63,150 nt of DNA from contig DASPQK010000307.1 in NCBI GenBank assembly GCA_035624985.1, positions 1-63,150 of the forward strand. The letters are read 5' to 3'. This document shows positions 1,765 to 29,640 of the stretch, in pieces. Made by a program: the position numbers and the translations under genes. Position 1 is the stretch's first letter; the number at the start of each line of letters is the position of its first letter. Origin of the DNA: Syntrophobacteraceae bacterium (GTDB lineage: Bacteria > Desulfobacterota > Syntrophobacteria > Syntrophobacterales > Syntrophobacteraceae). The notes beneath the pieces were generated by a model, which worked only from the letters and a program-made list of their open reading frames with translations, did not search any database and had not been told where the DNA came from.

Positions 1765-1934
1765 AGCGGAACACTGGAATTTGGAGACGCAGGTGAAATC
1801 CGCTGAGGATTATCAGGACATTAGAGGATCGTCACAACATTAACAAGCCATAAGAGGCGGAGGTCAGTCCCTGACTAGGTCTGGGGAAGCCTTTGCCGGA
1901 GTTCAACTCGGCCGATCAGAAAAGGAGAACGCAA

Positions 1935-2753
1935 ATGGCAGCCAACATGATGTACACGGCAATCGCAGGTCTTAACACCTTCAGCGACGCTTTGTCGATC
2001 GTAAGCGACAACATCGCCAACTCCAATACCACTGGATGGAAATCGAATACCGTGGACTTCGGCGATCTTGTGAGCGGTTTGATGCCGACCGCCGACGTCA
2101 ATATTACGGCGCAGGGCGTAGGCTCGCAAATTCTTGGAGTTACGTCGGACTGGTCGACCGGCAACGAAGTACAGACCGGCACCTGGTCGGATTTGATGAT
2201 CCAGGGCAATGGATTTTTCGCTGTCCAGGAAGGCCTTACCTCCGGCCCAGTCTATTATACCCGGGATGGATCGTTCCAGATAAATTCGGCTGGATATCTA
2301 ACCGACGAGAATGGCTACTATGTTCTTGACAACTCCTCGGGAACGGGAAAGCCGATACAGTGTTACGACACGTCTGGTGGTGGTGGCGGTGGTGTCCCAT
2401 ACGCCAGTTATGGTATCGACCAGTATGGAAATCTTACCGGGACCAATTCAAAGGGCGTCGTGGTTCCAATCAAGACCCTCCAGATTGCAACCTTCAACAA
2501 CCCCAACGGCCTCGTCCGGGAGGGAGCCAATGTGTACACTCCCGGCGCCAGCGCCGGGACAGCTGCAAACGGAACTGCGGGGTCCGGTCAGGCAGGCACG
2601 ATAATAGCCGGAGCGCTGGAAGGCTCAAATGTGGACCTGACTCAGCAGATGGTAAACTTGATTACCTACCAGGCCGACTACCAGGCGAACTCCAAATCCA
2701 TCGCCACCGGCAGCACCCTGCTCCAGACCGTGGTGGGCCTGATACCAGGGTAA
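1935..2753 (+). CDS. flgE: Flagellar hook protein FlgE, unusually short (272 aa)
   Basis: ATG at 1935 after an AAAAGGAG RBS. N-terminal rod/hook motif SDNIANSNTTGWK, central GNGFFAV...YTRDGSF, and C-terminal LEGSNVDLTQQMVNLITYQADYQANSKSI (FlgE-type QANSK). Sits directly after flgD. Confidence 0.8.
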   Translation: MAANMMYTAIAGLNTFSDALSIVSDNIANSNTTGWKSNTVDFGDLVSGLMPTADVNITAQGVGSQILGVTSDWSTGNEVQTGTWSDLMIQGNGFFAVQEGLTSGPVYYTRDGSFQINSAGYLTDENGYYVLDNSSGTGKPIQCYDTSGGGGGGVPYASYGIDQYGNLTGTNSKGVVVPIKTLQIATFNNPNGLVREGANVYTPGASAGTAANGTAGSGQAGTIIAGALEGSNVDLTQQMVNLITYQADYQANSKSIATGSTLLQTVVGLIPG

Positions 2754-2783
2754 ACATCGCAAAATAATATTAGGCTCCAGTGG

Positions 2784-2811
2784 GAAGGCGGCTTTGGCCG
2801 CCTTCTTTGTT
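2784..2811 (+). terminator. Rho-independent terminator after flgE
   Basis: gaaggcggc-tttg-gccgccttc: perfect 9-bp stem followed by tttgtt. Confidence 0.7.
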
Positions 2812-2966
2812 GATCGAAGGCAATCCCGGCGGCTAAGCTGGTGTTGCGTTTCACAAATTTATCGACATTTAGTTGAATCGGGTCACTACACTCCGTAACT
2901 CCAGCGCACCGCGCATCGTCACACCGGCGGCGGCCGGTGCGGAACCCAGAGGGCTCTCATACGGTG

Positions 2967-3015
2967 CTGCGTTCAAGATTGGGCTGGGGTAAACCCCCAT
3001 AAGCGCTTAAATAAG
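2967..3015 (+). repeat. Dispersed repeat family, copy B
   Basis: ctgcgttcaagattgggctggggtaaacccccataagcgcttaaataagg; differs from copy A by only a few substitutions or indels. Confidence 0.75.
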
Positions 3016-3110
3016 GACGAGGCTCCGCAAGGAAAAGGGACGGCATTCCCGCGAAGCCTGCCCCGGACCTGATCCGGAGGCGGGAATCCATAGTTCTTGA
3101 TTTTCGTTAT

Positions 3111-5237: not shown

Positions 5238-5465
5238 TTTCTTATCCGATGCTGTTTGGATACGGTTACCCCGGCGGCAATAAGGAATCTTCTTCCCGCC
5301 CGTCCATAGTCTTCCGAAGAGAGTGAAGAGCAAACTTGATACCAAACGGTGCGGTCACTAAAAAGGTCCTGGAACCAATGACTTACAACTCAACATTTTC
5401 TTTGGGCAGAATACTCTGGGCCTGGGCGGGAATTTTTTTCTCAGTGAGTGCGCAAGTATTTCCTC

Positions 5466-6548
5466 TTAAGCTCTCAAGTTCTCGGAATTGAGCACCGGAT
5501 TGAAAAGCATGGCAAGAGCCATTCTTCCCTCCTCATTGAAACGGCTTCGGACAGCCGCTCTCAGATCGGACCCCGACGATCCGAACTGGCCTGCTCTTAG
5601 ATCGTAGACTGAGCCGATCAAATGGGCCAATTTTGCTCCGTCGCTCTTGTCTTGTGCCCGCTTGATCGCTTTGGTGAAAATCTTCGCCGCATTGTTTGGG
5701 CCGTGCTGCACGGCTGTGCTCCAGAGCACCTCCTGGAGCGCCCTGGGGGCTTTTGAGACATCCAGGCCGGTTCGATCTGAAATTTCCTGAAGAGCCGGCA
5801 GATAATGACTCTTCTCAATAAAATCGTATTGCAGCTTCCCAAATCGGACAGAATCCTCAGCGGTTATCTTTTTCCAGACCTCGGGCATCCTTCCGGAACA
5901 ACTGCCTGTGTTTGACGGCCCGGCGGCTTTCAGTTTGGCGGCGATCTCCGGCGCCCGCTCAGACAGGTAATCGATAAAAAGCTTCATCGTGCCTGCCCTC
6001 GATGAAATCTGGTATGTCCCGTAGGAGGTCCCGCCGGCAACGTCATAGCCTATAGCGCCCGCGCCCGATTCGCCCGATTCGAAACGAGCGCAAAGTGTGC
6101 CGATTTCCTGCCCGGAACCCTGGCTGGAACCGAGCCCCGGCGCCGATCGGCCAACTCCGGCCATGCACGAACCTGCCCCCGGCACACCGCGGCCCCCGCC
6201 TCCATGGCAGTATAGACCGCCTATGCGGTTCGGACCTGAGGAAATGGCCGCCATGGCAATTAGAGCTGATGCCGCCAGATTATTGACGTTTTGCTCGTTC
6301 AGGTTCCGAATGGCTCCAAGGTTTTTCGAGGCCTTGTGACGGTTGTGATCCACATGCTCGGCGGAGGCAGGTTTATTTTTCGGACTGCCGGCAGTAGCGC
6401 TCTCGTTGGATTTAAACACATTAAGCAGCGCTTGAAACACATTGGAATTTACGGCCTTCTTATTATGGGTGGACTTAGTGGATTGAGCGGCCCTCCCGCT
6501 GGTTTCAACCCGTCCGCTGTTCCAAAAATTATCGACGCTGACTGCCAT
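5466..6548 (-). CDS. Hypothetical protein; C-terminal half resembles a lysozyme/chitosanase-like peptidoglycan hydrolase domain (VgrG3-C-like)
   Basis: Low-complexity G/S-rich N-terminal half. C-terminal GAIGYDVAGGTSYGTYQISSRAGTMKLFIDYL...LQYDFIEKSHYLPAL...VLWSTAVQHGP recalled as the T6SS VgrG3-type muramidase fold. Same strand as fliK, immediately upstream of it. Confidence 0.35.
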   Translation of the reverse strand: MAVSVDNFWNSGRVETSGRAAQSTKSTHNKKAVNSNVFQALLNVFKSNESATAGSPKNKPASAEHVDHNRHKASKNLGAIRNLNEQNVNNLAASALIAMAAISSGPNRIGGLYCHGGGGRGVPGAGSCMAGVGRSAPGLGSSQGSGQEIGTLCARFESGESGAGAIGYDVAGGTSYGTYQISSRAGTMKLFIDYLSERAPEIAAKLKAAGPSNTGSCSGRMPEVWKKITAEDSVRFGKLQYDFIEKSHYLPALQEISDRTGLDVSKAPRALQEVLWSTAVQHGPNNAAKIFTKAIKRAQDKSDGAKLAHLIGSVYDLRAGQFGSSGSDLRAAVRSRFNEEGRMALAMLFNPVLNSENLRA

Positions 6549-6832
6549 GACTCCAAGCCTCCGGTTGGTGTGTGGCTAAAATCTTATGCAAAAGGCGTGC
6601 TCCACTCAACGCTCGATTGTCGGTTTGCTGCCTTCTGTTCTATCCGGCTCCGAATGATTATAGTAAGGAAAATCGTGCCCGATGACGAAAAAGGGGATTT
6701 CGCAAACTTACGGGACTGCCATTGTTTGTCAATCCGCAATCGGGTTTGCAATTTTGCAATTTTTTCTCCACATTCCGGGAAAATTCTTGTAGTTTGCCCG
6801 TCGCCTTTGGTCGCCGGCTTGGAGGATCGTTT

Positions 6833-7429
6833 ATGGAAAGGTACTTCATGAAAATGCCCGAGGATTTGTTCTGCGAGATATGCTCCGAGAAAAGAGGCAT
6901 AAATCCCGACACCCTCAAGGAGGTCATCATTCTTGCCGTGGAGATCGCTCGTGAAGGCAGGGAAGGCAGAAGAATCGGGACAATGTTCGTGGTCGCCGAC
7001 TCGGAAAACGTCATGAAACATTCTCGCCCCCTGATTCTCGACCCCCTCCTGGGACACCCTGCTAAAGTCAAGCAAATCTTCGACCCCGACATGCGCGAAA
7101 CGGTCAAGGAACTTGCTCAACTCGACGGCGCCTTCGTCGTCTCAGATGATGGAACAGTAGTATCGGCCTGCCGCTACATTGACTCTTTCTCGGAAGGAAT
7201 CGACCTGCCGCTCGGCCTCGGAAGCAGGCACATGGCGGCGGCATCCATCACTAAACTGACCAACTCGGTCGCGGTGGTCGTCTCGGAGAGTTCGGTGGTC
7301 CGCATCATCGACAACGGGGATATAGTCTCCGAAATAATCCCCGAACTCTGGATGTTCAAAAGATACTCCGCACTTAGCAAAGGAAAAAAGGTCGAACAGG
7401 AAATAATAGTCAGCACGGTCGAGGATTAA
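6833..7429 (+). CDS. DisA_N/DAC-domain protein (putative diadenylate cyclase, soluble stand-alone form)
   Basis: GGAGGA RBS before the ATG at 6833. DAC motifs RIGTMFVV, DGAFVVSDDGTVVSACRYI, LGSRHMAAASIT, VAVVVSESSVVRII. No TM segments. Confidence 0.75.
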   Translation: MERYFMKMPEDLFCEICSEKRGINPDTLKEVIILAVEIAREGREGRRIGTMFVVADSENVMKHSRPLILDPLLGHPAKVKQIFDPDMRETVKELAQLDGAFVVSDDGTVVSACRYIDSFSEGIDLPLGLGSRHMAAASITKLTNSVAVVVSESSVVRIIDNGDIVSEIIPELWMFKRYSALSKGKKVEQEIIVSTVED

Positions 7430-7449
7430 CTGCGGAAGGGACGGATGAA

Positions 7450-8208
7450 ATGAGACAAATGAGCGGCATGTATCCCGTAATCTTGCTGGTCTGTTTCGTG
7501 TGCCTGATCGGATTGTCTGTCTCAGGGACTTATCTGATTATGCGTGTTAAGTATCAAAATCAGGCGGACAATAAAGACCGGGAGGTGCTGACCGTCCAGG
7601 AAAATAACAAAGCTTTGTCGGATCGCAACACTGAATTGCGCAATTCGCTCCAGAAGTTGGAAAATGAATACAGCGGGCTGGAGTCGCAGTATAAAGACCT
7701 TGCATCGAGGCTGGATTCCGCTGAACAGAAAAATATTAAAACGGCTTCCCAATTAGATGACGCTTTAAAAGATCTGCAAACAGCCAGAGCTGAGGTTTCC
7801 AAGCTTACGGGCAAACTGGATGCTAAATTGTCGGAAATAGAATCTTTGAATGTCGATCGGCAGACCTTGCAGGAAAAATATGACGAGTTCAAGGAAATGT
7901 TGGCTCCTGACCTGGTTCTTGAACCGACATGGGTCAGCTCCGGCGAAACGACTCTGGCCTTCGATGGCAGCCTTCTCATCGTTCTTTATGAAACCTCGGA
8001 AAAGGACAAGTGCCAAAAGGGCTCGGTGGCTGTCAGCTATCTCATCAGAGGGGCGGATAAAAAGAAACTGTGCCTCCGCGCAGGCAAGCCCGAGAACTTC
8101 ACATATCAAGGTAAAACATATCTGTTGAATTTGCTGGAATCAAAGCAAAGCGGAGAGACGCACCGTTTTTGTATTTATATAACCAGCCCTCGTCACTCTT
8201 CGCCATAG
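7450..8208 (+). CDS. Membrane-anchored coiled-coil protein, function unknown
   Basis: N-terminal TM (YPVILLVCFVCLIGLSVSGTYLI), then ~120 aa of heptad-like coiled coil, then a globular C-terminus. The 3' end overlaps the convergent pilT-like gene by 16 nt. Confidence 0.55.
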   Translation: MRQMSGMYPVILLVCFVCLIGLSVSGTYLIMRVKYQNQADNKDREVLTVQENNKALSDRNTELRNSLQKLENEYSGLESQYKDLASRLDSAEQKNIKTASQLDDALKDLQTARAEVSKLTGKLDAKLSEIESLNVDRQTLQEKYDEFKEMLAPDLVLEPTWVSSGETTLAFDGSLLIVLYETSEKDKCQKGSVAVSYLIRGADKKKLCLRAGKPENFTYQGKTYLLNLLESKQSGETHRFCIYITSPRHSSP

Positions 8209-9452
8209 TGGCCGGATTTTTTAATGTTATCTATAACTTCTTCCAGCCGAGGCTCACTGCCTATTACCATAATATCCCTTATGGGGGTCCCGGCGGGAGC
8301 TTCAACTGGCCCCGGTGAGGCTCCCTCCCTCATCTCCGGCCCCGAGGATTCCGATTTGGCCGGGTACGTGCAGCAAACACCCTCCGGGTCTAAAAGAGGA
8401 GATCGGTAGACTGATTCGTCAAGTTCAGGCGATGGCCTGAAGATTTCCGACGGCGACGAAAAAGAAGTCCGCTTCTCGATATAGTCTTTTGCATATGCTT
8501 CACTACTGAACATTCCTTCACCTTTTGAGGTTTGCATCGTACTCTCGATCTGGGCAAGCTTGTTTTCACGTATGATGTTTTTTATCGCGGAAGTGCCCCT
8601 CATTATGGAGAGGAAGGGGACGCGGAAGCCGGCCCTTTCAAGGTAACTCAGCCGCTGGACGATGAGCCATGTCAAGGTCGAAGCAACCTGGGTCCTCACA
8701 GCTCTCTGAACGTCGGGCGGAAAAGAATTGCATATCCGGTAGACAGCGTCCTCGGAGTTGGTCGCGTGCAGCGAGGCAATTATCAAGTGGCCGGCCTCGG
8801 CAGCGTTGAGGGCTAGTCTCATTGTCTCCGCATCCCTTAGCTCGCCGACCAGTATGACGTCCGGGTCTTCCCTGAGTACATCGACCAGACCCTGTTCGAA
8901 AGAGGGAATATGCTCACCCAGTTCCCGCTGTTCTATGAATGATCTTTTCGAGGCAAACCGATACTCGATAGGGTCCTCCAGGGTCACAACATGTGAACTC
9001 TTCACCTGGTTTATCTCGTTGATTATGGCCGCTATGGTCGTCGATTTTCCGGTCCCGGCTGCACCGCAAATAAGCACCAGCCCGCTGCGGGCGTCGGCGA
9101 TCTGCCGTAGCGAAGGGTGAAGATTGAGTGCGTCGATGCTTGGCACCACTCCCGGCAAAATCCTGATGGCAATGCTCAGGCCGCGAGTCGTGTTGAAAAC
9201 ATTTATCCTGAGGCGCACCTTGTTGGATGAAATTGCAAAATCGATAGACCGGCGCTTTCTCAGAACGGCCAGCTGCAAAGGGGCGATTAGCTGGCCCACC
9301 AGGCGGTCAACCTCACTGTGCGACCACCTGCCGCCTTTGTCGAAGTTAAGCAGCCCGTTTTTTCGGTAGATAACGGGATGGCCGCCGGTTATGTGCACAT
9401 CGGATAACCCCTCCCGCACACACCAGCTAATAAGCGTGTTAAATCGCTCCAT
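8193..9452 (-). CDS. pilT: PilT/PilU-family type IV pilus retraction ATPase with ~70-aa C-terminal extension
   Basis: SDVHITGGHPVIYRKNG, Walker A GAAGTGKSTT, Asp/His boxes (VILVGELRD, ASLHATN). P/S/E-rich tail. Confidence 0.85.
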   Translation of the reverse strand: MERFNTLISWCVREGLSDVHITGGHPVIYRKNGLLNFDKGGRWSHSEVDRLVGQLIAPLQLAVLRKRRSIDFAISSNKVRLRINVFNTTRGLSIAIRILPGVVPSIDALNLHPSLRQIADARSGLVLICGAAGTGKSTTIAAIINEINQVKSSHVVTLEDPIEYRFASKRSFIEQRELGEHIPSFEQGLVDVLREDPDVILVGELRDAETMRLALNAAEAGHLIIASLHATNSEDAVYRICNSFPPDVQRAVRTQVASTLTWLIVQRLSYLERAGFRVPFLSIMRGTSAIKNIIRENKLAQIESTMQTSKGEGMFSSEAYAKDYIEKRTSFSSPSEIFRPSPELDESVYRSPLLDPEGVCCTYPAKSESSGPEMREGASPGPVEAPAGTPIRDIMVIGSEPRLEEVIDNIKKSGHYGEE

Positions 9453-12423: not shown

Positions 12424-13557
12424 GTGCAAAGCGCCATGGACAAAACCGGCGGCCGGTTCAGCGGGACGATAGAATATGTCCGATTGATCGATCTGGTTCA
12501 GGTTTCCTGCCTGGCTAAAATGAGCCACATAATCAAAGTTGATTCACTAAACGTGGCGGACGGGACCGGCAGCTTCTATCTGGACTCCGGAAATGTCGTC
12601 CACGCTGAATTGGGAGATAAAATAGGGGAGGAGGCTTTCTTTGAAATACTTCAGTGGGAAAGGGGCCGTTTTGAAACGCTGCCCCTCCCTGAAAATTTTC
12701 CTGCCACAATCAACCGCAATTGGGAATATCTTCTCATCCAGGCGGTTCGCATGCAGGCGGGAAAAGACGGCAGTGAAGACGGGGGCCCCACGACCCAAAG
12801 CCTCTCACGCGGCTTTAGGGGCAGCATAAATGACGTCGGCTTGACGGACATAGTTCAGTTGATCTGCCTGGACAGCATCGACCGCATCGTTGAAATCCGT
12901 TCGGAGACTCTTGCCGGGACAATTCACGTCCGGGGCGGACAGGTTTGTCATGCGCAAACGGGCGATTTGGCGGGACAGGAAGCTTTCTTCAAAATGTTGG
13001 CCGCCGCCAGCGGAAGCTTCGAGATACTTTCCCGTTCCATGAAGTGTGAGGTCACAATCCAGGCGGCGTGGGAGCACCTGCTCATCGAGGGCGTGCGCCT
13101 GCTCGATGAAGCATCGGGGGTGGTTGAAGAACAGGACAAACTCCGGGCCGAAAGCCTGTTCCAAAAAGTCCAGAAAAAAAATGTGGCTCAAAAAATTCGG
13201 CTTGCAATGACAGGGGATAAGGAAACCCGCGGCCTCCTTATACGGGACGGTAATCGAATAATTCAACTCGCAGTGGTCTCAAATCCCAGGATAAGCGAAA
13301 GTGAAGTCGCGGCCATAGCTTATTCCAGGCAGGTTGATGAAGAGGTCCTGCGCAGGATTGCCGCCGATAAGGAATGGGTCGCGCTCTACCCCGTGCGGCT
13401 CGCTCTTGCGGCCAACCCCAGGACCCCGCCCGCCATTTCCAAAAAGCTGGCCTCAACGCTTAACCGCCGGGACCTGCGAAACCTCTCTGTAAGCAAGGCC
13501 GTTCCAGCTTTAGTGGCCAACGAGGCGCGAAGGCTCCTTGGTAAGCAGCCCGGATAA
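12424..13557 (+). CDS. Tandem PATAN (DUF4388) domain protein with C-terminal LRV/HEAT-like repeats; putative pilus regulator
   Basis: Two copies of the DUF4388 pattern (GTIEYVRLIDLVQVSCL...GNVVHAELGDKIGEEAFFEIL and GSINDVGLTDIVQLICL...GQVCHAQTGDLAGQEAFFKML). Tail has NPRISESEV / NPRTPPAIS repeats. Start is GTG 12424 or ATG 12436. Confidence 0.7.
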   Translation: MQSAMDKTGGRFSGTIEYVRLIDLVQVSCLAKMSHIIKVDSLNVADGTGSFYLDSGNVVHAELGDKIGEEAFFEILQWERGRFETLPLPENFPATINRNWEYLLIQAVRMQAGKDGSEDGGPTTQSLSRGFRGSINDVGLTDIVQLICLDSIDRIVEIRSETLAGTIHVRGGQVCHAQTGDLAGQEAFFKMLAAASGSFEILSRSMKCEVTIQAAWEHLLIEGVRLLDEASGVVEEQDKLRAESLFQKVQKKNVAQKIRLAMTGDKETRGLLIRDGNRIIQLAVVSNPRISESEVAAIAYSRQVDEEVLRRIAADKEWVALYPVRLALAANPRTPPAISKKLASTLNRRDLRNLSVSKAVPALVANEARRLLGKQPG

Positions 13558-13598
13558 CCAGTCGGCATCTGCTCTGCGCCGTGCCTTTACGCCGGAGC

Positions 13599-15155
13599 TT
13601 ACCCCAGCCTGGCGGTCTGCGGCGGGGAATCCATGTGCCGGCTCTCTCTGCGTTCTTTTAGAATATGCGGGGTGATGAATATCAAAACGTCCTGAAACTG
13701 GTTTTGATTGTAATAGTTTTTGAACAATGCCCTGACCAAGGGGACGTCCATGAAGCCCGGCACGCCTTTCTCTGTCACCGTTTTTTGCTGTAGTGACAAC
13801 CCCGATATCACGACCGTCTCGCCATCGGCGCATATCATGGTGGTCCTGGTTTCCTTTTTCTGGATGAGGGGATTGCCTTGCACCATCTGGGAAAAATCGG
13901 GCTGATCCTTCTTGATGACTACGTTCAATTTCAAAATATCGCCTGAAATCACATGAGGAGTGATTTCGAGTCTTATGACGGCATCGACGTAGGTAACGCT
14001 TGCCTGGCCCGTGGTGGTCAACGACGCAACGGGCACGCTCTGGCCGTCCTGGGTATAGGCCGTTTGATTGTCGAGCGTGGTCAGTGACGGCGTTGACAGG
14101 ATGTTGACTTTTCCCTGCTGCGCGAGGGCCGACAACTGCAAGTCCAGGATAGTGTGGCCAAGGGTGCCGACCAGCACCCCGAGTGACCCGGCCGGGGTGT
14201 CCTGCGTCGGAAGGTTTACGGCAAAGCCCTGTCCGCCGATGCCGGCAGTCCCCGTGAGCGGTGCGTAGGTGAACTGCCCCGTTGTGGGATTGATCACCGG
14301 ATTGGTGCTGGTGCCCCCCGGCGTGATGTACGTGTTGCCGCTGTGGAATAAGCCTCCCCACTGGATGCCGAGTTCACGCGTCACGTCCTTGGTCGCTTCC
14401 ACGATATTGGAAACGATGTGAATCTGGGGCGTGGGTCTGTCTAGACTTTGGACGAGCCCCACCATCCCGGCGAGTTCGTCCGGGGTGGACTTTATGACAA
14501 GAGAACTGGTGTGTTCGTCGTAGGCAAGGTACCCGCGAACTTTTCCACTCTCATCTTTTGTAAGAGTTTCCTTGAGCTTTTCCTGCAGCTTGGCGGGGTC
14601 GGAGAAATGGATGGGAACGACCTTGATCTGCATGGGACGTATGCTCGCTATTTTAGCTTCGTTGGCCATGTCTTCGGCTGTCATTACGCGCAGCATATTC
14701 CCTTCCCACATGTAATCAAGCCCTTCGGAATGCAGGATTCCAAGGAATGCCTGGTCCCAGGGAACGTCTTCGAGTTCTACGCTCACAGTGCCTTTGACTT
14801 TCTCATTGAGCAAAATGTTCAGCCCCACGGAACGCGCAAGGGCTCGGAGCACCACGGCGGTGTCGGCGTTGTGCATCCGAAGGCTGACTTTGTGGGTGGG
14901 AAGAGACCTCTGCTCCTTCGCCAAAGGCTTCCCTGTTACGGCCTCACTTACGCCCTGGGCAGGTTGAGCGGCAGGCGGCTCAACGGCCGGGGGGGTCTGA
15001 GGTGAGAAGCCGGTGGAGCTTTCCGCAAGAGTTTGCCAATTTTCAATGGAGTTTTGCCCGACAGTGGGCTGTGGAGGCGGCTTTTGCGTCCCCGCGCAAC
15101 CCCAAACGGTCACCTGGAATATCAACGCAACTGCAGCCCAGCGCAACTTCCGCAT
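13599..15155 (-). CDS. pilQ: Type IV pilus secretin PilQ
   Basis: Lipoprotein-like signal (VWGCAG), Secretin_N repeats, C-terminal secretin motif GVPGFMDVPLVRALF...VLIFITPHIL. Confidence 0.9.
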   Translation of the reverse strand: MRKLRWAAVALIFQVTVWGCAGTQKPPPQPTVGQNSIENWQTLAESSTGFSPQTPPAVEPPAAQPAQGVSEAVTGKPLAKEQRSLPTHKVSLRMHNADTAVVLRALARSVGLNILLNEKVKGTVSVELEDVPWDQAFLGILHSEGLDYMWEGNMLRVMTAEDMANEAKIASIRPMQIKVVPIHFSDPAKLQEKLKETLTKDESGKVRGYLAYDEHTSSLVIKSTPDELAGMVGLVQSLDRPTPQIHIVSNIVEATKDVTRELGIQWGGLFHSGNTYITPGGTSTNPVINPTTGQFTYAPLTGTAGIGGQGFAVNLPTQDTPAGSLGVLVGTLGHTILDLQLSALAQQGKVNILSTPSLTTLDNQTAYTQDGQSVPVASLTTTGQASVTYVDAVIRLEITPHVISGDILKLNVVIKKDQPDFSQMVQGNPLIQKKETRTTMICADGETVVISGLSLQQKTVTEKGVPGFMDVPLVRALFKNYYNQNQFQDVLIFITPHILKERRESRHMDSPPQTARLG

Positions 15156-15194: not shown

Positions 15195-15689
15195 TTATCT
15201 CAACACTTCCCCCGTAAACGGGACGCTGAAGCTCTCCGGGCCATTGAGTTGTTTTACTACCACATTTTGGGGACTTATGGCCTGGACGACGAGTTCGCTT
15301 CCCAGCACCACCTCCCCGACTTGATACTCCATGCCGTTGATAACGGCCAATCTTGCCTGACCGGCGATAACGAAACCCGTGTAAGCAAGAGCGGTATGAG
15401 TTTCCCCTGCCTTGGGCGATGCGGGTTTTGCCGCCGTGAGTTTTTTGCCCAGGAAAGGATCGCTCGCCCATTCGGTCGAGGCTAGTTCCAAGATGCGAAC
15501 CTGCCCTTCCGACAGGAGCGCTTTTTTTTCCGCTTCCTCAGTGCGGCTTGCAAAATCCTGCAACGCCTTGAAATCGATCAGGGCAACACCGGTTGAGACT
15601 TCCGGTAAACGACCCGTGAGGAAATAGACTGCGCCGGCAACTACTGCGGCAGCCGTCGCCGCCAGGATGATTGTCTCACGTTTTGTCAT
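15195..15689 (-). CDS. PilP-like pilus assembly protein
   Basis: N-terminal TM. C-terminal beta domain YTGFVIAGQARLAVINGMEYQVGEVVL...VVVKQ. Located between pilO and pilQ. Confidence 0.5.
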   Translation of the reverse strand: MTKRETIILAATAAAVVAGAVYFLTGRLPEVSTGVALIDFKALQDFASRTEEAEKKALLSEGQVRILELASTEWASDPFLGKKLTAAKPASPKAGETHTALAYTGFVIAGQARLAVINGMEYQVGEVVLGSELVVQAISPQNVVVKQLNGPESFSVPFTGEVLR

Positions 15690-15718
15690 AGCTTCTCGCG
15701 GTCAACGTTTGCTTTCAC

Positions 15719-16279
15719 TCAGCCTGACGCCGGTTGGGATTTGTTTACCATCAGCCATAGCTTCAGAAAGTACTGCTTGCCGTCCGAACCTTCCTGGATA
15801 TCTAACTCTTCAATATTCCCCAGATACGGCAGTCCGGCCAGTTCAACCAGGAATTTCCGCAGATCGAAAAGATTACCTCTCAGCGCCAAACCAACCGACA
15901 GGAAATGTGAGTCCGGAGTCAACGATTTGACATACGGAGTAAACTCCACGGCCTCAAGGCCGCAATGCGCGGCCATCTCACTAAATATGGGAGATAAATT
16001 ATCCATCTGCCGTAAGGACAACCCGGACTTGGGCGGATTCCACTGAGCTTTCGAATTTTGCGGAGCGAGATTCTCGCGCAGTTTCTGATAGAGTGGGAAG
16101 AGCACCTTCTGTTCCTCGATTCGAGCCTTGAGGTCTGCGATCGACCCGTTCATGCGGACCATGTTCCTGTGAGAAGGGTAGATGCCCGCCAGCAGAAAAA
16201 CAACTATTCCAGCCCCGCATATCAGAAGATAGATAAGGCTTCGCCGGGGGAGATCGAAAAATAATTTCTTTTCCTGCAT
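15719..16279 (-). CDS. pilO: PilO-like pilus assembly protein
   Basis: TM helix, then coiled coil (IADLKARIEEQKVLFPLYQKL), then a ferredoxin-like C-terminus. Conserved position. Confidence 0.65.
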   Translation of the reverse strand: MQEKKLFFDLPRRSLIYLLICGAGIVVFLLAGIYPSHRNMVRMNGSIADLKARIEEQKVLFPLYQKLRENLAPQNSKAQWNPPKSGLSLRQMDNLSPIFSEMAAHCGLEAVEFTPYVKSLTPDSHFLSVGLALRGNLFDLRKFLVELAGLPYLGNIEELDIQEGSDGKQYFLKLWLMVNKSQPASG

Positions 16280-23531: not shown

Positions 23532-26468
23532 GTGAGAAGGAAAAAAGGTTTTACCCTGATCGAGCTTATCGCGGTGCTGGTTATTATGGGCGTTTTGGCA
23601 TCGTTAGCCAGCGTCATAATTCCAAGGTATGTCAATTGTTATTTATTGGCTCGTGACGGGCAGTCTATAAGCCAAAAAGCTCAGATAGCATTGACGCGCA
23701 TCGGCCTGGAACTAAGGTCAATACTGACAGTCAGCGCGACGGCTTCCTCTCCTGCAAGTATCACATATACCAGGTTATCGAACAGCGCGACAAACCCGTC
23801 TTTATTTAATCAAATACTCGCCCTGTCAGGTAATACAATAACGCTGAACAGTAATGGTACTACTAATACTCTTCTCGATAATGCAAATAATTTCACTTTG
23901 ACATTCTATAAAGCCGGTTCGCAACAATGGGTATGCGGAACCGACCCTATTACGTTACTCTGTTATATCGTCATCAATTTAGGAGTGACTTGCAGCAATG
24001 GCGCTGTGGCCAACTTTTCGACGGCTGTCAGTTTGCGGAACAATGGAAGTACGGGAGGAGTTACGCCGCCAACCACTACGAGTCCACCTCCTTACAATCC
24101 GTGTTTTGTGGCAACCGCCGCTTTCGGTCGGGAAGACCATCCGGTTGTAGTAACCCTGAGAGAATTTAGAGATCGTTGTCTTCGCAACTGGTCTATGGGA
24201 AGGAGCTTTATCAAGGTCTACAATCAGATCGGACCGTACTTGGCCAATGCTGTCATGAATCGGCCATGGGCTTGCATTATGGCGCAGTTTCTGCTCTTTC
24301 CCATCGCCGGAACGGTTTTCTTTTTAGTTTATCTGCCTGCGGGACTGCCGGTGATTTTCATTATTTCCTGGGGGTTATTCAAATTCATCTCCCGTATATT
24401 TGCAAAGCTAAGGGAAACCCGCATCGAGATATTACCGGATGACAGGGGTTCCATGCTCATCGCGGTCATCGTGACGATAACCATCCTTGCAGTGCTTATG
24501 GCGGCTATGTCCACGTTTGTGGCAACCTCTTCGTTTTCTCAACTGGAGGGATACGCGTCCAGACAAGCCTATTACCTGGCTGAATCGGGTTACAGGTATG
24601 CAGCTTCCCAGTTCCTCAACGCCGGAGCCGGCTCAACGGGAGGAGCAAAGCAAGCCGCCAAATTTCAGGAACTTTCCGCCTTGAGCCAAGTGAACGGGAC
24701 ATCATCCGTAAAGCTTGGCGCCAACGGCGTGGACGGCAGCTTCTCACTTTCAGTGACCCCATATTTTTTGGTCTACAGCGCGAACTATTCGGCTGGAGCC
24801 AAATCCGTCCAGTTGACCTATCCGGGAAACACGCCCTCTTCAGGGTACAGCCTCCCTTCAACCGGGTCCTTCGATGTGAGCCTGCCCCCCAGTACAAACA
24901 CACCGGTCATCGTCGGATATAGTCAGAGCGGGAATACGTATACGATAACCAGTGGAAGCATCCCTGCCGTGCAGCAATACAACAGCGTTCGTTTTGTTAC
25001 AAACCCGGCGAGTGCAGGATCCATTACTCAGGGTGGCAATCTTACATTGGCGAATGCAGGACCGTTCCCTCCATTTAATGGAACTTTCAGAGTAAACTCG
25101 AATCCCAACTGGTATCAATATCAATCAAAATCAAACAATACGCTTCAAAACATAACGAGTACAAATGCTGCCAGTCCCGGAGCAGGGCTGCCCCTGACGG
25201 TTGCGAGCACTGACAATATAGTGTGCAATGAATTTGTGGAAATACAATCCACCGGCACGTCCCCAACCGGACTGACTCAAAAGGCATCCCGGTCGGTGCT
25301 CTACTATGCGCAAATCGGCCCCGTAAATATGGGTGGATCGTCGGGTTCGTCGGTTATCACAACCGGCACCTCAGGCAGTGCGGGCGTAGACACAATGGGC
25401 GGCGCCAGCCTGGGTTCGGACGCAAACTTCTCTACCTCCGGGGGCCTCCCCGTGGGAACCTCATCTTATACTACATCAAACGGCAATACCTATCTACAGA
25501 TGACCACGAACAACAGCAACGGCGGCTGGGGCGGATGGTGGTGGGATAATCAAAACGGCTGGTGGGCGCTCTTGCCGATAAGTTCCACGGACAATAACAA
25601 TCTTTCTAATTCTTTTGCTAACGGCAGCACCCATTTTTATGAAGCACAAATAAAAGTTTATACCAATTTAAATAACACTGCTCCATCTGATTATTTGGCC
25701 GGCATAAGCTTTAGAACTGCGGCATACTGGTCCTCATATTATGGTTATGGATTGTCATTTGCATATTTCCCGGGCAATCAGGGGTCGTGGTGGGGAAATT
25801 GGTTTGGCAACTATGGTATACCCAGTGGGTTAGTGCCAACGAGTCCTCAAGGCAACAACGTGACGGGCCAGCCCATCATTTTGCTATGGGAAAATACGGC
25901 GTACTTTGGATATCAATGGCTTGCGTATAAAGTACTTCCGCAAAGCCTTGTCAACAGCTCAACCGGTATTCAAAATTGGGCCACGCTACTGGTCAGCCTG
26001 GAGGAAGCCACACACAGTTCCGGTGGGAAATATAACCAAATCAGGGCCTACTACGGCACTACGGGGCAACAGGGAACCGGGCCCAATACCATCCCAACCG
26101 ACAACAACAGCGGCGCTAACCCGCTGGGGACCGCGAACTGGACGCCCCTGGACGCCACGGCAAGCGACTGGACCGCATCCGTGGATGATTTCACGCTCGT
26201 AAAGTGGGACTATGTCAACCCAAGTGGAAGCTCCACCCTGGCCCCATCCTCCGACTTGCCGAGCGGAGACTCCGCGGAGGCCGGTTGCGTTATCGAGGAT
26301 TCTACATTTGTGACATCTTCCAACGAAGCGCTTTATACCCCTGAAATCCTGTTGCATGTCGCCGGAAGCGGCAGCAGTTATAATTCGATCAGCATTGGTT
26401 TTGACGATTTCGCTATCTACGGTCCCACGGGCGCCAGTATCGCATTTATGAACCCCATCCAGCAATAA
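23532..26468 (+). CDS. Giant chimeric minor pilin: PilW/GspJ-like pilin + CFI-box-like membrane cassette + PilX-N-like helix + ~580-aa S/T/G/N/W-rich domain
   Basis: GTG 23532 after a GGAG RBS (ORF open from TTG 23508). RRKKGFTLIELIAVLVIMGVLASLA. Mid-protein CFVATAAFGREDHPVVVTLREFRDRCL plus two TM helices. RGSMLIAVIVTITILAVLMAAMSTF...YYLAESGYRYA. No in-frame stop over 2.9 kb. Confidence 0.7.
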   Translation: MRRKKGFTLIELIAVLVIMGVLASLASVIIPRYVNCYLLARDGQSISQKAQIALTRIGLELRSILTVSATASSPASITYTRLSNSATNPSLFNQILALSGNTITLNSNGTTNTLLDNANNFTLTFYKAGSQQWVCGTDPITLLCYIVINLGVTCSNGAVANFSTAVSLRNNGSTGGVTPPTTTSPPPYNPCFVATAAFGREDHPVVVTLREFRDRCLRNWSMGRSFIKVYNQIGPYLANAVMNRPWACIMAQFLLFPIAGTVFFLVYLPAGLPVIFIISWGLFKFISRIFAKLRETRIEILPDDRGSMLIAVIVTITILAVLMAAMSTFVATSSFSQLEGYASRQAYYLAESGYRYAASQFLNAGAGSTGGAKQAAKFQELSALSQVNGTSSVKLGANGVDGSFSLSVTPYFLVYSANYSAGAKSVQLTYPGNTPSSGYSLPSTGSFDVSLPPSTNTPVIVGYSQSGNTYTITSGSIPAVQQYNSVRFVTNPASAGSITQGGNLTLANAGPFPPFNGTFRVNSNPNWYQYQSKSNNTLQNITSTNAASPGAGLPLTVASTDNIVCNEFVEIQSTGTSPTGLTQKASRSVLYYAQIGPVNMGGSSGSSVITTGTSGSAGVDTMGGASLGSDANFSTSGGLPVGTSSYTTSNGNTYLQMTTNNSNGGWGGWWWDNQNGWWALLPISSTDNNNLSNSFANGSTHFYEAQIKVYTNLNNTAPSDYLAGISFRTAAYWSSYYGYGLSFAYFPGNQGSWWGNWFGNYGIPSGLVPTSPQGNNVTGQPIILLWENTAYFGYQWLAYKVLPQSLVNSSTGIQNWATLLVSLEEATHSSGGKYNQIRAYYGTTGQQGTGPNTIPTDNNSGANPLGTANWTPLDATASDWTASVDDFTLVKWDYVNPSGSSTLAPSSDLPSGDSAEAGCVIEDSTFVTSSNEALYTPEILLHVAGSGSSYNSISIGFDDFAIYGPTGASIAFMNPIQQ

Positions 26469-26540: not shown

Positions 26541-27767
26541 TCAGTGCGCCATCTTCGTCAGGTCCCACATAGGCATAAAAATGGCCAGAGCGAAGAAACC
26601 AACCACAGCGGCAAGCCCGACGATCAAGACCGGCCCGAGCGCCTCAGAGAGTTTTCCTATCGCGTAGGCGACCTCATCGTCGTAATGGATGGACACTTCC
26701 TTAAGCATCTCATCGAGACTGCCCGATTCCTCGCCGACAGCAACCATGTTGATCACCATCGGAGTAAAGTACCTGGCGGAACTGAGAGGCCCTGCTATCC
26801 CTCGGCCTTCTTCGACGAGGGTTCTGATCTTTTCGAATTCCAGCGCGATGGCCCTGTTGCCCAAAGCGCCTGCCAGCACCTTCAAGGCATCGAGCACCGG
26901 TACGCCGCTGGCTTGGAGTATGGCAAAAATACTTGCAAACCGCGACATCGCGGCCTTGATGAAAAGAGGGCCGAAGACCGGAAGTCTCAGAATCAGGGCA
27001 TCCTTGAGATATCTCCCGCTCTCGGTCCTGAGGTAACGGGACAATCCGAAGAACAAGGCTGCGAAACCGATCAGCCCGAAGTACCAGTAATTGTGGATAA
27101 AAGCGTACAAGTCCATGCATATGACCGTGGGAAGCGGAAGCTTCAAATTCGCGGCCTTGAAGACACCGGCAAATTTGGGGATAACGAATGTGAGCAAAAC
27201 GAAAAACGCGACGGCCAAGGCGACGCAAACCATTATTGGATAGTGGAGGGCGGACATGATATCGGATTTTACCTTGTGTTCGTGCTGAATAATCCGAATG
27301 AGGCGATCGAGCACCTCCGGAACGGCCCCGCTGGTTTCGCCGGCGCGCACCATGCTGCAATACAGTGAAGAAAAGGTGTGGGGATGTTTCCTGAAGCAAT
27401 CGTAAAGCGTGGCGCCCTGCCTGATGTCCTCCCTCATGACCGCTGCGATTTTCTTGAGCTTGAGATTTTCAGTCTGATTTTCCAATACCTGGAGGATCGT
27501 GAGTATCGGGACGCCCGCCTTGAGCAGTGTCCTGAATTGCTTGGTGAAAAGGATCAGCTCCGGCGGCTTTACCTTGGTGAGCCGTTCCTGGAGATCATTC
27601 AGGGGCGAAGCCGAAGTGCCCCCATGCTCCTTGCCCGGCGCTACTTTCAAAGGTATAAGCCCTCGCGCCAGGAGCATATTCACGGTAGAATCCACCGAAT
27701 CGGCATCCAGCGATCCGGTAATGCTAGCCCCTGTTTCGGTTGTAGCTTCGTAACTGAATTTGGGCAT
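26541..27767 (-). CDS. pilC: Type IV pilus platform protein PilC (GspF family)
   Basis: Two T2SSF repeats. 408 aa. Typical three-TM layout. Adjacent to pilB. Confidence 0.92.
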   Translation of the reverse strand: MPKFSYEATTETGASITGSLDADSVDSTVNMLLARGLIPLKVAPGKEHGGTSASPLNDLQERLTKVKPPELILFTKQFRTLLKAGVPILTILQVLENQTENLKLKKIAAVMREDIRQGATLYDCFRKHPHTFSSLYCSMVRAGETSGAVPEVLDRLIRIIQHEHKVKSDIMSALHYPIMVCVALAVAFFVLLTFVIPKFAGVFKAANLKLPLPTVICMDLYAFIHNYWYFGLIGFAALFFGLSRYLRTESGRYLKDALILRLPVFGPLFIKAAMSRFASIFAILQASGVPVLDALKVLAGALGNRAIALEFEKIRTLVEEGRGIAGPLSSARYFTPMVINMVAVGEESGSLDEMLKEVSIHYDDEVAYAIGKLSEALGPVLIVGLAAVVGFFALAIFMPMWDLTKMAH

Positions 27768-27927: not shown

Positions 27928-29640
27928 TCATACCAGGATCGCCGAGATGGCCTCCTCGAAGGTGGTCAATCCCTGTATGACCTTGCTTATAGCATCATCC
28001 CTCAAGGTCCGCAGCTTCCCCGCCTTTACGGCAGCCTTGGTAATCTCGGGCGCCGAGGCCCTCTTGAGGATCATATCCTGTATCGTATCGTCGTTTAAAA
28101 GTATTTCGAAAATGCCGATTCTTCCCTTGTAGCCGGTATTCATGCAATTGAAACAGCCCCTGCCGCGAAACCAGGTGATGTTTTCCGTATTTTCCAGGCC
28201 GAACCGCTTGATGAGGTCCCCGGGTGGATCGTAAGGGGCTTTGCAGTACTGACAAACGGTCCTGACAAGACGCTGCGCAAACGATATGAGAAGAACGGAG
28301 GCGACAAGAAAAGGTTCTATCCCCATATCTATGAACCTTGTGATCGCCCCGGCAGCATCGTTGGTGTGGACAGTGCTGAGCACCCGGTGACCGGTCATGG
28401 CGGCCTGAACCGCGATGCTGGCCGTCTCCGAATCACGGATTTCGCCCACCAGGATGATATCCGGGTCTTGACGCAGGATTGCCCTCAGTCCACTGGCAAA
28501 GGTCATTCCTGCTCTGCGGTTCAGTTGAATCTGGCGGATCCTTTCAACGCGGTACTCCACCGGGTCTTCCAGCGTTATGATGTTCACATCCGGGCTGTTG
28601 AGGTTTCGAAGGATTGCGTAAAGGCTCGTGCTCTTGCCGCTCCCCGTTGGACCGGTGCTCAGGATCATCCCGTAGGGCTTCCTAATTCCACTTTCAATGC
28701 GCTCCCTATCCTCTGCGGACATGCCAAGACGGTCTAGCGTGTAGTTGCCGGCGCTCATGTCAAGGAGGCGCAAGACCAGGTTCTCTCCATGAATGGTCGG
28801 TAAAGTGGAAACCCTTATGTTTATTTCCTTGTTCTCCATCCTGACGGTAAACCGTCCGTCCTGCGGGACCCTTAGCGTGGCAATATCCATCCCGGCAAGG
28901 ATTTTCACTCGCGAGACGATGGGCATCAGCATGGACTTGGGCGGGGCCGGCATCTCGTGCAACTTGCCGTCTATGCGGAACCGGACCGAGGAGGAAGCAT
29001 GTTCGGGACTGATGTGAATGTCGCTGGCCCCTTCCCGAACCGCCTGAGAGACGATGCTGTTGACCAGGCGGATGACCGGAGCTTCGTCAGCCATATCCTT
29101 GAGGGTGCTGACCTGGAGGTCCTGGCTTTCGCGCTCTTCCGGAGTTTCGGAGGTATCCTTGTCAATCTGCACTTCCTCGATGGTTTCCAATACATTGCCA
29201 AGCCCTGTCTGCATCCCGTACATGCTGTTCCGCAACTGGTTCAGCACCCTCTCGGTGCAGATCACGGGTTCCACCTCGAGATTAGTGGCCACCTCAATTG
29301 CATCCAGCGCCTCAACGTCCATCGGATCGGTCATACCGACGGTCAGTAGCCTGCCTTTTTTCCGCAAAGGAACGCTCTGGTGCCTCATCGCCAGATCGAA
29401 TGAAATTGTGTCGGCCAATTGTAAATCCACTGGGAAATCGCCGGGATGGTATTTCTCTATGTCGAGCTGACGGCTCAACATGTCTATAATCAGTCCCTCG
29501 CTGACAATCCCTTGCCGGATCAGGAACTGTCCTAGCTTCAAACCGGATTTCGCCTGCTCGGCCAAGGCCGCCTTCAGTTGCTCCTCACTCAAAAGCCCGG
29601 CTTCGAGGAGCATCTCTCCAAGTCTCTTCTTAATTTTCAA
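27928..29640 (-). CDS. pilB: Type IV pilus assembly ATPase PilB (GspE family)
   Basis: MshEN-type N-domain (LGEMLLEAGLLSEEQLKAALAEQ), Walker A GPTGSGKST, tetracysteine CQYC...CFNC motif. Confidence 0.93.
   Translation of the reverse strand: MKIKKRLGEMLLEAGLLSEEQLKAALAEQAKSGLKLGQFLIRQGIVSEGLIIDMLSRQLDIEKYHPGDFPVDLQLADTISFDLAMRHQSVPLRKKGRLLTVGMTDPMDVEALDAIEVATNLEVEPVICTERVLNQLRNSMYGMQTGLGNVLETIEEVQIDKDTSETPEERESQDLQVSTLKDMADEAPVIRLVNSIVSQAVREGASDIHISPEHASSSVRFRIDGKLHEMPAPPKSMLMPIVSRVKILAGMDIATLRVPQDGRFTVRMENKEINIRVSTLPTIHGENLVLRLLDMSAGNYTLDRLGMSAEDRERIESGIRKPYGMILSTGPTGSGKSTSLYAILRNLNSPDVNIITLEDPVEYRVERIRQIQLNRRAGMTFASGLRAILRQDPDIILVGEIRDSETASIAVQAAMTGHRVLSTVHTNDAAGAITRFIDMGIEPFLVASVLLISFAQRLVRTVCQYCKAPYDPPGDLIKRFGLENTENITWFRGRGCFNCMNTGYKGRIGIFEILLNDDTIQDMILKRASAPEITKAAVKAGKLRTLRDDAISKVIQGLTTFEEAISAILV

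Follow-up and report, generated by a model that had tools for sequence, protein, structure and literature searches.

How a single gene at the close of a type IV pilus locus can encode two pilin-type modules in one chain, with an anchor of the kind that normally ends a protein lying between them, is the question raised by a 63,150-nucleotide stretch of DNA from a Syntrophobacteraceae bacterium (assembly GCA_035624985.1, contig DASPQK010000307.1, positions 1 to 63,150 of the forward strand). This whole stretch is referred to here as the window, and all coordinates are counted along it. The gene, at 23532-26468 on the forward strand, is a naturally occurring fusion that unites two neighbouring minor-pilin genes of a type IV pilus or type II secretion-like locus. 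It is very probable that its product is a true two-pilin fusion with the topology described below, in which an internal cassette returns the chain to the cytoplasm ahead of the second pilin-type helix. The best overall explanation, which adds to the fusion and its membrane-return cassette two cuts by prepilin peptidase and assembly into a tip complex, is one that we consider moderately likely.

The reading frame itself is straightforward. From a GTG start at 23532 it runs without interruption for 978 residues to the stop codon included in the interval, and an alternative TTG start at 23508 would give eight residues more (986 in all). An earlier note on this DNA had described a single uninterrupted frame, and so it is, with every sequence feature quoted there at its place; entry P0001 of the protein collection that was searched is identical to the 978-residue form. 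It might be suspected that a missed stop or frameshift in the assembly has merged two genes, as separate-gene versions do occur in relatives, but the same in-frame fusion recurs far beyond this contig. A search of 5.8 billion proteins with the fused protein returned 126 clusters, nearly all of 970-1380 residues and 28-77% identical, aligned over up to their full length, from NCBI, ENA, JGI and Logan assemblies of Syntrophobacteraceae, Syntrophus, Smithella and other 'Deltaproteobacteria' (phylum Thermodesulfobacteriota). The complete isolate genome of Nitratidesulfovibrio liaohensis (CP133659) also carries the fused gene, and one close relative (P0005) is represented on 20 different contigs. 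By a simple scan, 101 of the 120 listed homologues share a common module order, with G-F-T-L-I-E near the N-terminus, CF[VI]ATAA at about residues 190-230, a hydrophobic stretch of about 45 residues and a further strongly hydrophobic helix, and the cassette motif is CFVATAA in all but one of the scanned homologues that have this order. More than 100 clusters from independent assemblies keep the N_methyl motif, CFVATAA, the hydrophobic stretch, the second helix and the long C-terminal part. Sequencing error is rejected because the architecture is conserved in these clusters and in a complete genome; in addition, the cassette forms a coherent domain that scores above threshold and shares its reading frame with both flanks, and the unfused relatives have no cassette at all instead of an interrupted one. 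An assembly artefact is so improbable that it can be set aside, and the fused arrangement is widespread in sulfate-reducing and syntrophic bacteria and is not a one-off.

The anatomy of the protein can be followed in an AlphaFold2 model built on an alignment of 75 homologues (mean predicted local distance difference test score, pLDDT, 78.9), in which G6, F7, T8, L9, E11, C191, F192, V193, T195, G306, L309, A350, E351 and G353 are invariant. The first half opens with a class III (prepilin) signal, RRKKG↓FTLIELI, whose residue +5 is Glu (23532-23609, residues 1-26; here and below the arrow marks the Gly junction). The signal exceeds the thresholds of both Pfam N_methyl PF07963 (32.2 bits, cutoff 21.2, E 7e-8) and TIGR02532 (31.4 bits, cutoff 16.3, E 1e-7), and with G6, F7 and E11 invariant it deserves its earlier description as textbook; this N-terminal methylation motif is the sole Pfam match on the whole fused protein. 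It leads into a pilin module at 23556-24056, modelled with pLDDT of about 80-90, that consists of an alpha-1 helix (residues 9-62) and a beta-sheet body (residues 63-175, with the sheet itself at 66-167). The module ends in a conserved PRNN-x-N-x-GG, of which R169, N170, G175 and G176 are invariant. Beyond it lies a Pro/Thr-rich linker, GVTPPTTTSPPPYNP (24057-24101, residues 176-190), within a segment that is disordered in the model from residue 175 to 195 (linker pLDDT below 50), at roughly the place where the first pilin gene terminates in unfused relatives. The best reading of residues 1 to about 175 is an ordinary prepilin in the GspJ/PilW position of its operon. That label, given to the body in the earlier note as PilW/GspJ-like, holds mainly because of gene order, together with a weak match to Pfam T2SSJ (PF11612) in two of 17 relatives (best E 6.2e-4); the window protein itself matches neither T2SSJ nor TIGR01711. 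A profile of the first-half family matched solved pilins among PDB sequences only at the generic N-terminal helix.

Between the halves lies a domain that belongs to a catalogued family. Residues 191-258 (24102-24305), which begin with CFVATAAFG and continue as short helices (residues 193-241 in the model) bearing LREFRD and Y..GP..A motifs, match NCBIfam NF041770, CFI_box_CTERM, at 65.6 bits (cutoff 40, E 2.5e-18) over model positions 1-68 of 69, far more than chance would give, which bears out the identification offered earlier. Two hydrophobic helices follow, as had been noticed from the letters alone, and both are helical in the AlphaFold2 model: helix A at 24264-24332 (residues 245-267) and helix B, the membrane-return or stop-transfer helix, at 24336-24413 (residues 269-294). 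It is also correct that the cassette normally ends proteins. In ordinary CFI-box sequences (n=110, from a query with a consensus CFI sequence, whose matches are short or partial only) the distance from the Cys to the C-terminus has a median of 95 residues and a range of 52-121; the fused protein has 788 residues after C191 and so departs from the C-terminal location usual for NF041770. Compared with the 56 ordinary cassettes that have at least 95 residues after the Cys, helix B is much the same, with a median hydropathy of about 2.6 in the fused family and 2.57 where it serves as the terminal anchor, and the basic tail has a median of 5 Lys+Arg in the fused family against 4, with a median of 0 Asp+Glu in both. 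Helix A is more hydrophobic in the fused family (median 2.2 versus 1.6) and is missing from relatives with a short cassette. The length of the cassette from Cys to Gly is remarkably fixed in the fused family (median 116 residues). In every fused form the stretch between the halves contains Cys-Phe-[Ile/Val], one membrane helix or more, and a basic loop; CF[IV] is kept in all cassette types, even in minimal ones that have nothing else of the CFI domain, and is found in none of the unfused pairs examined. The best reading of residues 191-306 is that they were borrowed from the CFI-box-CTERM anchor family, with its Cys-Phe-Val motif, small helical domain, membrane helix and basic tail.

Some observations on the CFI box outside the fused family may be recorded here. 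The sole full-length ordinary CFI-box protein seen comes from a Desulfobulbus metagenome-assembled genome (L017), in which two genes, at 3919-6321 (+) and 6340-8735 (+) of that locus, lie near a pseudopilin operon; an 800-residue secreted protein, with a signal peptide and a repeat-rich passenger of about 700 residues, terminates in the CFI-box-CTERM cassette, and its gene is directly upstream of a GspG/H/I/J-like pseudopilin operon. This arrangement may reflect a wider link between CFI boxes and type IV filaments, or a coincidence. Short CFI-box proteins of about 100-120 residues (P0211, P0222, P0227, P0140 and P0152) have no signal peptide as called, and several have no membrane helix, so the CFI domain is not always part of an exported, anchored protein. 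A gene of the UbiA prenyltransferase family (13110-13961, minus strand, of locus L085) is directly downstream of the fused gene in that locus only among those examined; it was noted because Cys-Phe-Ile-Ala looks CAAX-like.

What was joined is shown by relatives in which the two halves are separate. A scan of the genome collection was dominated by the generic GFTLIE pattern and left seven informative loci (L004-L009 and L017), and separate, adjacent halves without a cassette are found in L006-L009, in L003 and at P0011, which answers the synteny check for separate versus fused genes proposed at the outset. In a Desulfobacula metagenome-assembled genome (L009), a 180-residue pilin ends in PRNLP and is followed by a 463-residue gene product with the same C-terminal jelly-roll motifs, which starts MNQLKNNAGQYFNNNKG↓FMLIGLIAAITII and continues to AYYLAESG, the residues after the Gly being FMLIGLI. 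The corresponding second genes start MKRIFPGQKAEIRMDLQRG↓FALLTII in a Syntrophales genome (L008, leader ending in MDLQRG), MLLPKKEFRLRPFLPEG↓SMIMALV in Smithellaceae (L007, leader ending in FLPEG) and MIKGYCPVESHLVRSGRG↓AMLISL in Syntrophobacterales (L006, leader ending in VRSGRG), while P0011, which has an in-frame stop upstream, starts MLKDQKG↓SVLIAAIV. A profile covering the second helix and 200 more residues, run against 1.84 billion representative proteins, returned 1,481 clusters at E ≤ 1e-3, with 225 at E ≤ 1e-30. Among the top 150 matches were 132 new proteins: 42 stand alone, their leaders being 5-39 residues long (median 15); in about 20 a full CFI cassette joins the halves, and in about 36 the join is a short cassette of Cys-Phe-[Ile/Val], one membrane helix and a basic loop, a form seen also in L005, P0068, P0092 and P0116. 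The locus L003, 62% identical to the window gene, carries a TAG stop within its Pro/Thr linker and has lost about 250 nucleotides of the cassette (7985-8175, against window 24030-24470); the deletion takes the CFI domain and both hydrophobic helices and leaves the Cys codon and alignable flanks. Judged from this single Logan contig, it is apparently a secondary fission of a fused gene. The proposal that ancestral pilin genes were merged by way of a C-terminal-type anchor cassette is thus supported by a genuine CFI domain, by its conservation across the clusters and by unfused relatives without any cassette.

The basic loop and junction, AKLRETRIEILPDDRG (24402-24449, residues 291-306), are disordered in the model (the loop at 295-306) and end in G306, which is invariant in 75 of 75 sequences; where sequences are anchored on AYYLAESG, a Gly lies 41-42 residues upstream in 225 of 230. 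The junction logo, Q-[RK]-G↓[SA]-[VI]-L-[IV]-G-L-I, is identical in 174 fused and 43 standalone proteins, and the same Gly is the end of a short basic N-terminal leader in the standalone homologues. The residue after it is Phe in the standalone proteins of L008 and L009, as at classical prepilin sites, and is Ser in the window protein; position +5 is Gly, Ala or Ser and never Glu (Ala in the window protein, Gly in most relatives). A conserved internal start codon for the second half was considered and rejected, as most relatives have Val, Ile or Ala at position +2 after the Gly and only five of 174 have Met. Beyond the junction is a second pilin-type alpha-1 helix without Glu at +5 (24450-24620, residues 307-363), with a conserved AYYLAESGYRYA motif at residues 345-356 that holds the invariant A350, E351 and G353; it spans 59 residues in both AlphaFold2 models (residues 305-363).

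In the type II secretion tip complex and among the minor pilins of Pseudomonas type IVa pili, it is GspK and PilX that have no Glu5, and a +5 position lacking Glu is a hallmark of their class; Gly at -1 is a key determinant for prepilin peptidase. The second half shows these traits, in that its leader ends in Gly, it has no Glu5 and it is encoded in the last pilin gene of a minor-pilin operon. Matches to named families are all below threshold: the second helix region gives 13.7 bits against GspK (NF037980, cutoff 130, E 0.033, model positions 2-60), and residues 304-353 give 18.9 bits against tapirin (NF051896, cutoff 600, E 3.8e-4, model positions 17-66), the best of these sub-threshold matches. 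The Pfam models for PilX_N, T2SSK, PilW, PilY1 and lectins find nothing on any segment even at E up to 10. At the internal site (residues of about 297-330) there is no TIGR02532 match, and PF07963 gives 6.9 bits (E 6.6). The internal site is therefore compatible with the Glu5-less GspK/PilX subclass and not with the canonical prepilin model, and the label PilX-type can be kept because of the sub-threshold N-terminal matches to GspK and tapirin and because of the junction logo. The earlier description of an uncleaved PilX-type helix was right about the pilin-type helix; Pfam PilX_N does not match it, and 'uncleaved' is not the best description. Cleavage is more likely, because the leaders of standalone proteins end in a junction of the same kind, Q-[KR]-G↓[SA]-x-L-I, whose Gly is invariant, and on the sequences at hand the balance leans slightly towards a cut by prepilin peptidase between G306 and S307.

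By hydropathy alone the fused protein has four membrane-competent segments, and a naive count places the large C-terminal domain in the cytoplasm, with helices A and B both crossing, the second long helix running from outside to inside, and the 670-residue C-terminal part left within. This four-span arrangement, which was raised earlier as a topology problem, has the simple count in its favour but is very improbable. Homologues of the C-terminal part occur with a plain basic leader and helix, which export them, and also behind cassettes with a single membrane helix; the turn between A and B has about three uncharged residues, compared with a median of 5 Lys+Arg and 0 Asp+Glu in the loop after B; and the C-terminal domains, beta and jelly-roll modules rich in Ser, Thr and Asn, are of a type usual in surface proteins. 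The problem dissolves once it is seen that many relatives have a single cassette helix and that ordinary cassettes have one strong helix and a basic tail. The cassette would normally cross the membrane once, from outside to inside, because it has that one strong helix and basic C-terminal tail and because its passenger in L017 follows a signal peptide. By the positive-inside rule, the charge of the loop after helix B argues for a cytoplasmic location, and the second half is placed outside because its homologues follow a plain N-terminal leader or single-helix cassettes. We infer that the N-terminus is inside, the first pilin body outside, the chain back in through helix B, the basic loop inside, and the second helix and adhesin domains out; this remains an inference because the hydropathy of helix A (median 2.2) exceeds that of its counterpart in ordinary cassettes.

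One plausible course of events can be built on this topology. The first signal would insert with its N-terminus inside and the first pilin body would be exported to the periplasm; helix B would then act as a stop-transfer and return the chain to the cytoplasm, and because the cassette does so the internal signal could insert. With the basic loop inside, the second helix would insert N-in/C-out like a normal prepilin, exporting the adhesin domains. Any two N-in/C-out pilins, once fused, would need a stop-transfer element, and in this sense the cassette would serve as one. Prepilin peptidase would cut at G6↓F7 and G306↓S307 to give two subunits at a fixed 1:1 stoichiometry, and both subunits, with the two upstream small pilins, would prime and cap the pilus, the second half on top and displaying a carbohydrate-binding module. 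The products would then lie at the tip. A prepilin peptidase gene is near the homologous fused gene in N. liaohensis (L001), and none is present among the window open reading frames scanned.

Several points weigh against this explanation. We know of no prepilin-peptidase substrate with a 'leader' of about 300 residues that holds membrane helices, and no precedent for an internal prepilin-peptidase site turned up among the listed hits of the literature searches. The invariant G306 could be kept for structure instead of cleavage. Helix A is hydrophobic enough to span, and if A and B both spanned the membrane the junction would be periplasmic and the model would fail. The second half reaches no pilin-family threshold; its profile finds no solved relative among PDB sequences, and a model of residues 300-625 (pLDDT 85.5) has no significant fold match in the PDB by Foldseek (best E 0.036), a weak negative because the solved GspK and PilX structures are without the N-terminal helix. 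After a cut at G306 the first half would still be tethered by helix B, and its entry into a filament would need an extra step; no conserved processing enzyme, whether protease or transferase, lies beside the gene in five fused loci and the window.

These points bear on two other ways of reading the junction. The protein might be an uncleaved, polytopic one with three spans and both domains in the periplasm, acting as a membrane-tethered primer, platform or periplasmic adhesin and not as filament subunits. The lack of a precedent among the listed literature hits speaks for this, as does a second site without Phe at +1, Glu at +5 or a TIGR02532 match, and the fixed length of the cassette could mean a structural role in the membrane. 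The junction is, however, the exact leader-end logo of standalone homologues, invariant Gly included, and those homologues are pilin-like proteins of the ordinary kind, with short leaders. Known filaments bury the N-terminus of the alpha-1 helix in their core; cleavage is supported because such a terminus cannot stay tied to a membrane hairpin, and, if the inference from known filament structures holds, a hairpin-tied helix could not pack there. A tip complex stuck in the membrane would also block extension, and an uncleaved protein is unlikely.

The second possibility starts from the tethering of the first half, for which a further processing or modification step, marked by the CF[IV] motif and freeing the first half from helix B, can be proposed as a speculation. 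Carried to its end, this would make the CF[IV] box an active processing or lipidation signal, comparable to other sorting signals at C-termini that contain a Cys, with cuts at CF[IV] and at G306, the cassette discarded, and a free first pilin, possibly with a modified C-terminal Cys, released together with a free second one. Such a three-piece polyprotein would remove the tethering problem; its Cys-Phe-[Ile/Val] is invariant in all cassette types and missing from all unfused pairs, no other Cys is conserved in the family as a partner for C191, and the motif, membrane helix and basic tail have the tripartite look of a sorting signal. Against this, no enzyme, chemistry or publication for the CFI box turned up in the literature searched, the loci examined hold no conserved neighbouring protease or transferase, and P0211, P0222 and P0227, which have no signal peptide or membrane helix, fit a sorting signal poorly. 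We regard this outcome as doubtful, and we would not readily expect the related one, in which the polyprotein is cut at two sites, the internal class III signal at G306↓S307 and the CF[IV] box, the latter as a processing or lipid-modification site releasing the first pilin. The favoured explanation remains cleavage by prepilin peptidase at the two class III-type sites, with the cassette as a membrane-return element.

The question of what the second half displays is best approached from its model. After the long helix and a further helix at residues 370-385 comes a confidently modelled beta-rich domain (24708-25325, residues 393-598) that matches nothing in Pfam or NCBIfam, then a low-confidence linker (residues 600-617) and a C-terminal beta jelly roll (25458-26447, residues 643-972). 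Foldseek of the whole model matches the jelly roll best, and weakly, to polysaccharide lyases and GH16 enzymes (3gne, E 0.011, Foldseek probability 0.96; 6d2c, 0.93; 4awd, 0.82), and by this modelling it is probably a carbohydrate-binding or lectin-like module. The earlier picture of a beta-rich, possibly lectin-like end of about 580 residues with striking Trp clusters holds, but the clusters are no feature of the family. The Trp-rich runs GGWGGWWWDNQNGWW and SWWGNWF (25527-25565 and 25788-25802, residues 666-678 and 753-757) are loop insertions in the jelly roll, private to this protein and present in none of the relatives that are 70-77% identical, and residues 663-673, most of the first run, have low model confidence. 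A PilY1-like tip part was not borne out, as residues 434-978 have no Pfam or NCBIfam match and the folds are jelly rolls and not propellers. The best reading of residues 307-978 is a large modular pilin in the GspK/PilX position, made up of a helix that has no Glu5, then a beta domain and a jelly roll, and it is presumably a tip adhesin.

The place of the gene in its locus agrees with that of a minor-pilin pair. Directly upstream are a 157-residue GspH/FimU-like minor pilin (22603-23076, +; N_methyl, Pfam GspH E 1e-4, TIGR01708 gspH E 1.3e-7) and a 142-residue minor pilin in the GspI/PilV position (23073-23501, +; N_methyl and otherwise weak, sub-threshold pilin-family matches), whose ATGA start overlaps the stop of the first. 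The same unit of three genes, in which the fused gene comes after two small pilins, is seen again in N. liaohensis (L001), L084, L085 and L086. The gspH-I-J-K and fimU-pilV-W-X operons have the same module order, and because exactly two small pilin genes precede the fused gene, the locus can be read as four pilin-type modules in three genes. The fused gene closes a pilus locus that otherwise comprises a secretin gene (13599-15155, -), two small assembly genes (15195-16279, -), a PilM/PilN-like fusion (16289-18082, -), the major pilin (18541-18942), genes for a membrane protein, a family-2 glycosyltransferase and a methyltransferase (19080-22590, +), PilC (26541-27767, -) and PilB (27928-29640, -).

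Some features of these neighbours deserve mention in their own right. The PilM-PilN-type protein, of 597 residues with a partial PilM_2 match and a membrane helix, has equivalents of 602-640 residues at the same position in L001, L003, L085 and L086, and since it too looks fused, the locus would hold more than one gene fusion. The set at 19080-22590 consists of a 521-residue polytopic membrane protein with no Pfam or NCBIfam match, the glycosyltransferase, which has C-terminal membrane helices, and an S-adenosylmethionine (SAM) methyltransferase, and it looks like a periplasmic glycosylation module, perhaps for pilins; in L003 a 497-residue gene product with no Pfam match follows the pilin, and in L084 the locus is bordered by genes for a glycosyltransferase and a methyltransferase. 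A DUF4388 protein (12424-13557) adjoins the secretin gene, and upstream of the pilus locus, at 1072-6548 and 8193-9452, are flagellar hook genes (FlgD, a rod or hook protein of the FlgE/F/G type, and FliK), together with a protein whose C-terminal domain is VgrG3-like and an ATPase resembling PilT.

Type IV pili and the pseudopili of type II secretion are primed and capped by minor pilins, for which work on the sequence and ratio of subunits at the tip is still in progress. A natural J-K (or W-X) fusion giving rise to two subunits would be an obligatory 1:1 neighbour pair at the tip, and the unfused, short-cassette and full-cassette forms in related bacteria are ready-made comparisons. The protein raises the question of whether prepilin peptidase can process an internal class III signal that is preceded by membrane helices. 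It also offers a first interpretable context for the CFI-box-CTERM cassette, which occurs in many bacterial and archaeal phyla, with helix and basic tail as a stop-transfer and the Cys-Phe-Ile motif retained only when the anchor is present. Were the two-site polyprotein true, it would be the first natural prepilin-peptidase substrate with a whole pilin and anchor as its 'leader', and the CFI-box-CTERM signal would gain a first functional context and a tractable assay. The hosts are syntrophs and sulfate reducers, for which pili matter in aggregation and interspecies contact.

Comparison with known systems is instructive. The closest parallel is with the GspJ+GspK and PilW+PilX pairs, which share with the fused gene its operon position after a GspH-like pilin and a small pilin in the GspI/PilV position, a first member with G↓F and E5, a second whose basic leader has Gly as its last residue, which lacks Glu5 and has a bulkier body, and a total of four pilin modules together with the two upstream genes. 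Unlike those pairs, the window protein is one polypeptide with a membrane-return cassette, scores below the thresholds of the family hidden Markov models and has, after its second helix, a fold with no match in the PDB. CFI-box-CTERM proteins (NF041770) have the same CF[IV]ATAA, LR-FRD helix, YY..(S/G)P..A motif, hydrophobic helices and basic tail, but in them the cassette normally ends the protein, as in the 800-residue protein of L017, whereas 788 residues follow the Cys here and helix A is more hydrophobic. Tapirins are cellulose-binding proteins encoded beside the type IV pilus locus of Caldicellulosiruptor (bioRxiv 10.1101/359786); like the window protein they are large, pilus-locus-associated putative carbohydrate binders, and their N-terminal helix region matches below threshold, but the match is limited to that region and no similarity was found to the tapirin body. 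Modular type IV pilins, among them CofB, GspK and, in Streptococcus sanguinis, PilB (which bears a vWA module) and PilC (which bears a lectin module of the concanavalin-A-like kind), are described as having one pilin module, at the N-terminus (PMC8179133). They resemble the window protein in combining a pilin helix with extra beta or lectin-like modules that are presumably exposed at the tip, and S. sanguinis PilC's lectin/glucanase module, which is concanavalin-A-like, can be set beside the jelly roll (PMC8179133). They differ from it in that the window protein has a pair of pilin-type helices, a class-III-like junction that is internal and preceded by three further helices, and domains without a Pfam signature. 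The second half alone, like its standalone homologues, fits the definition of a modular pilin, and the whole fused protein departs from it in having two such helices. The earlier impression that no such architecture had been described is upheld by the literature searched, among whose listed hits no fusion of two pilins and no internal class III signal turned up, and by the generic database names of the family members. The components, namely prepilins, modular pilins and a catalogued C-terminal anchor domain, are of known kinds; their combination, undescribed in those hits, is new in placing two pilin modules in one chain, in joining them through an internal class-III-type junction, and in using a 'C-terminal' anchor as an internal membrane-return element.

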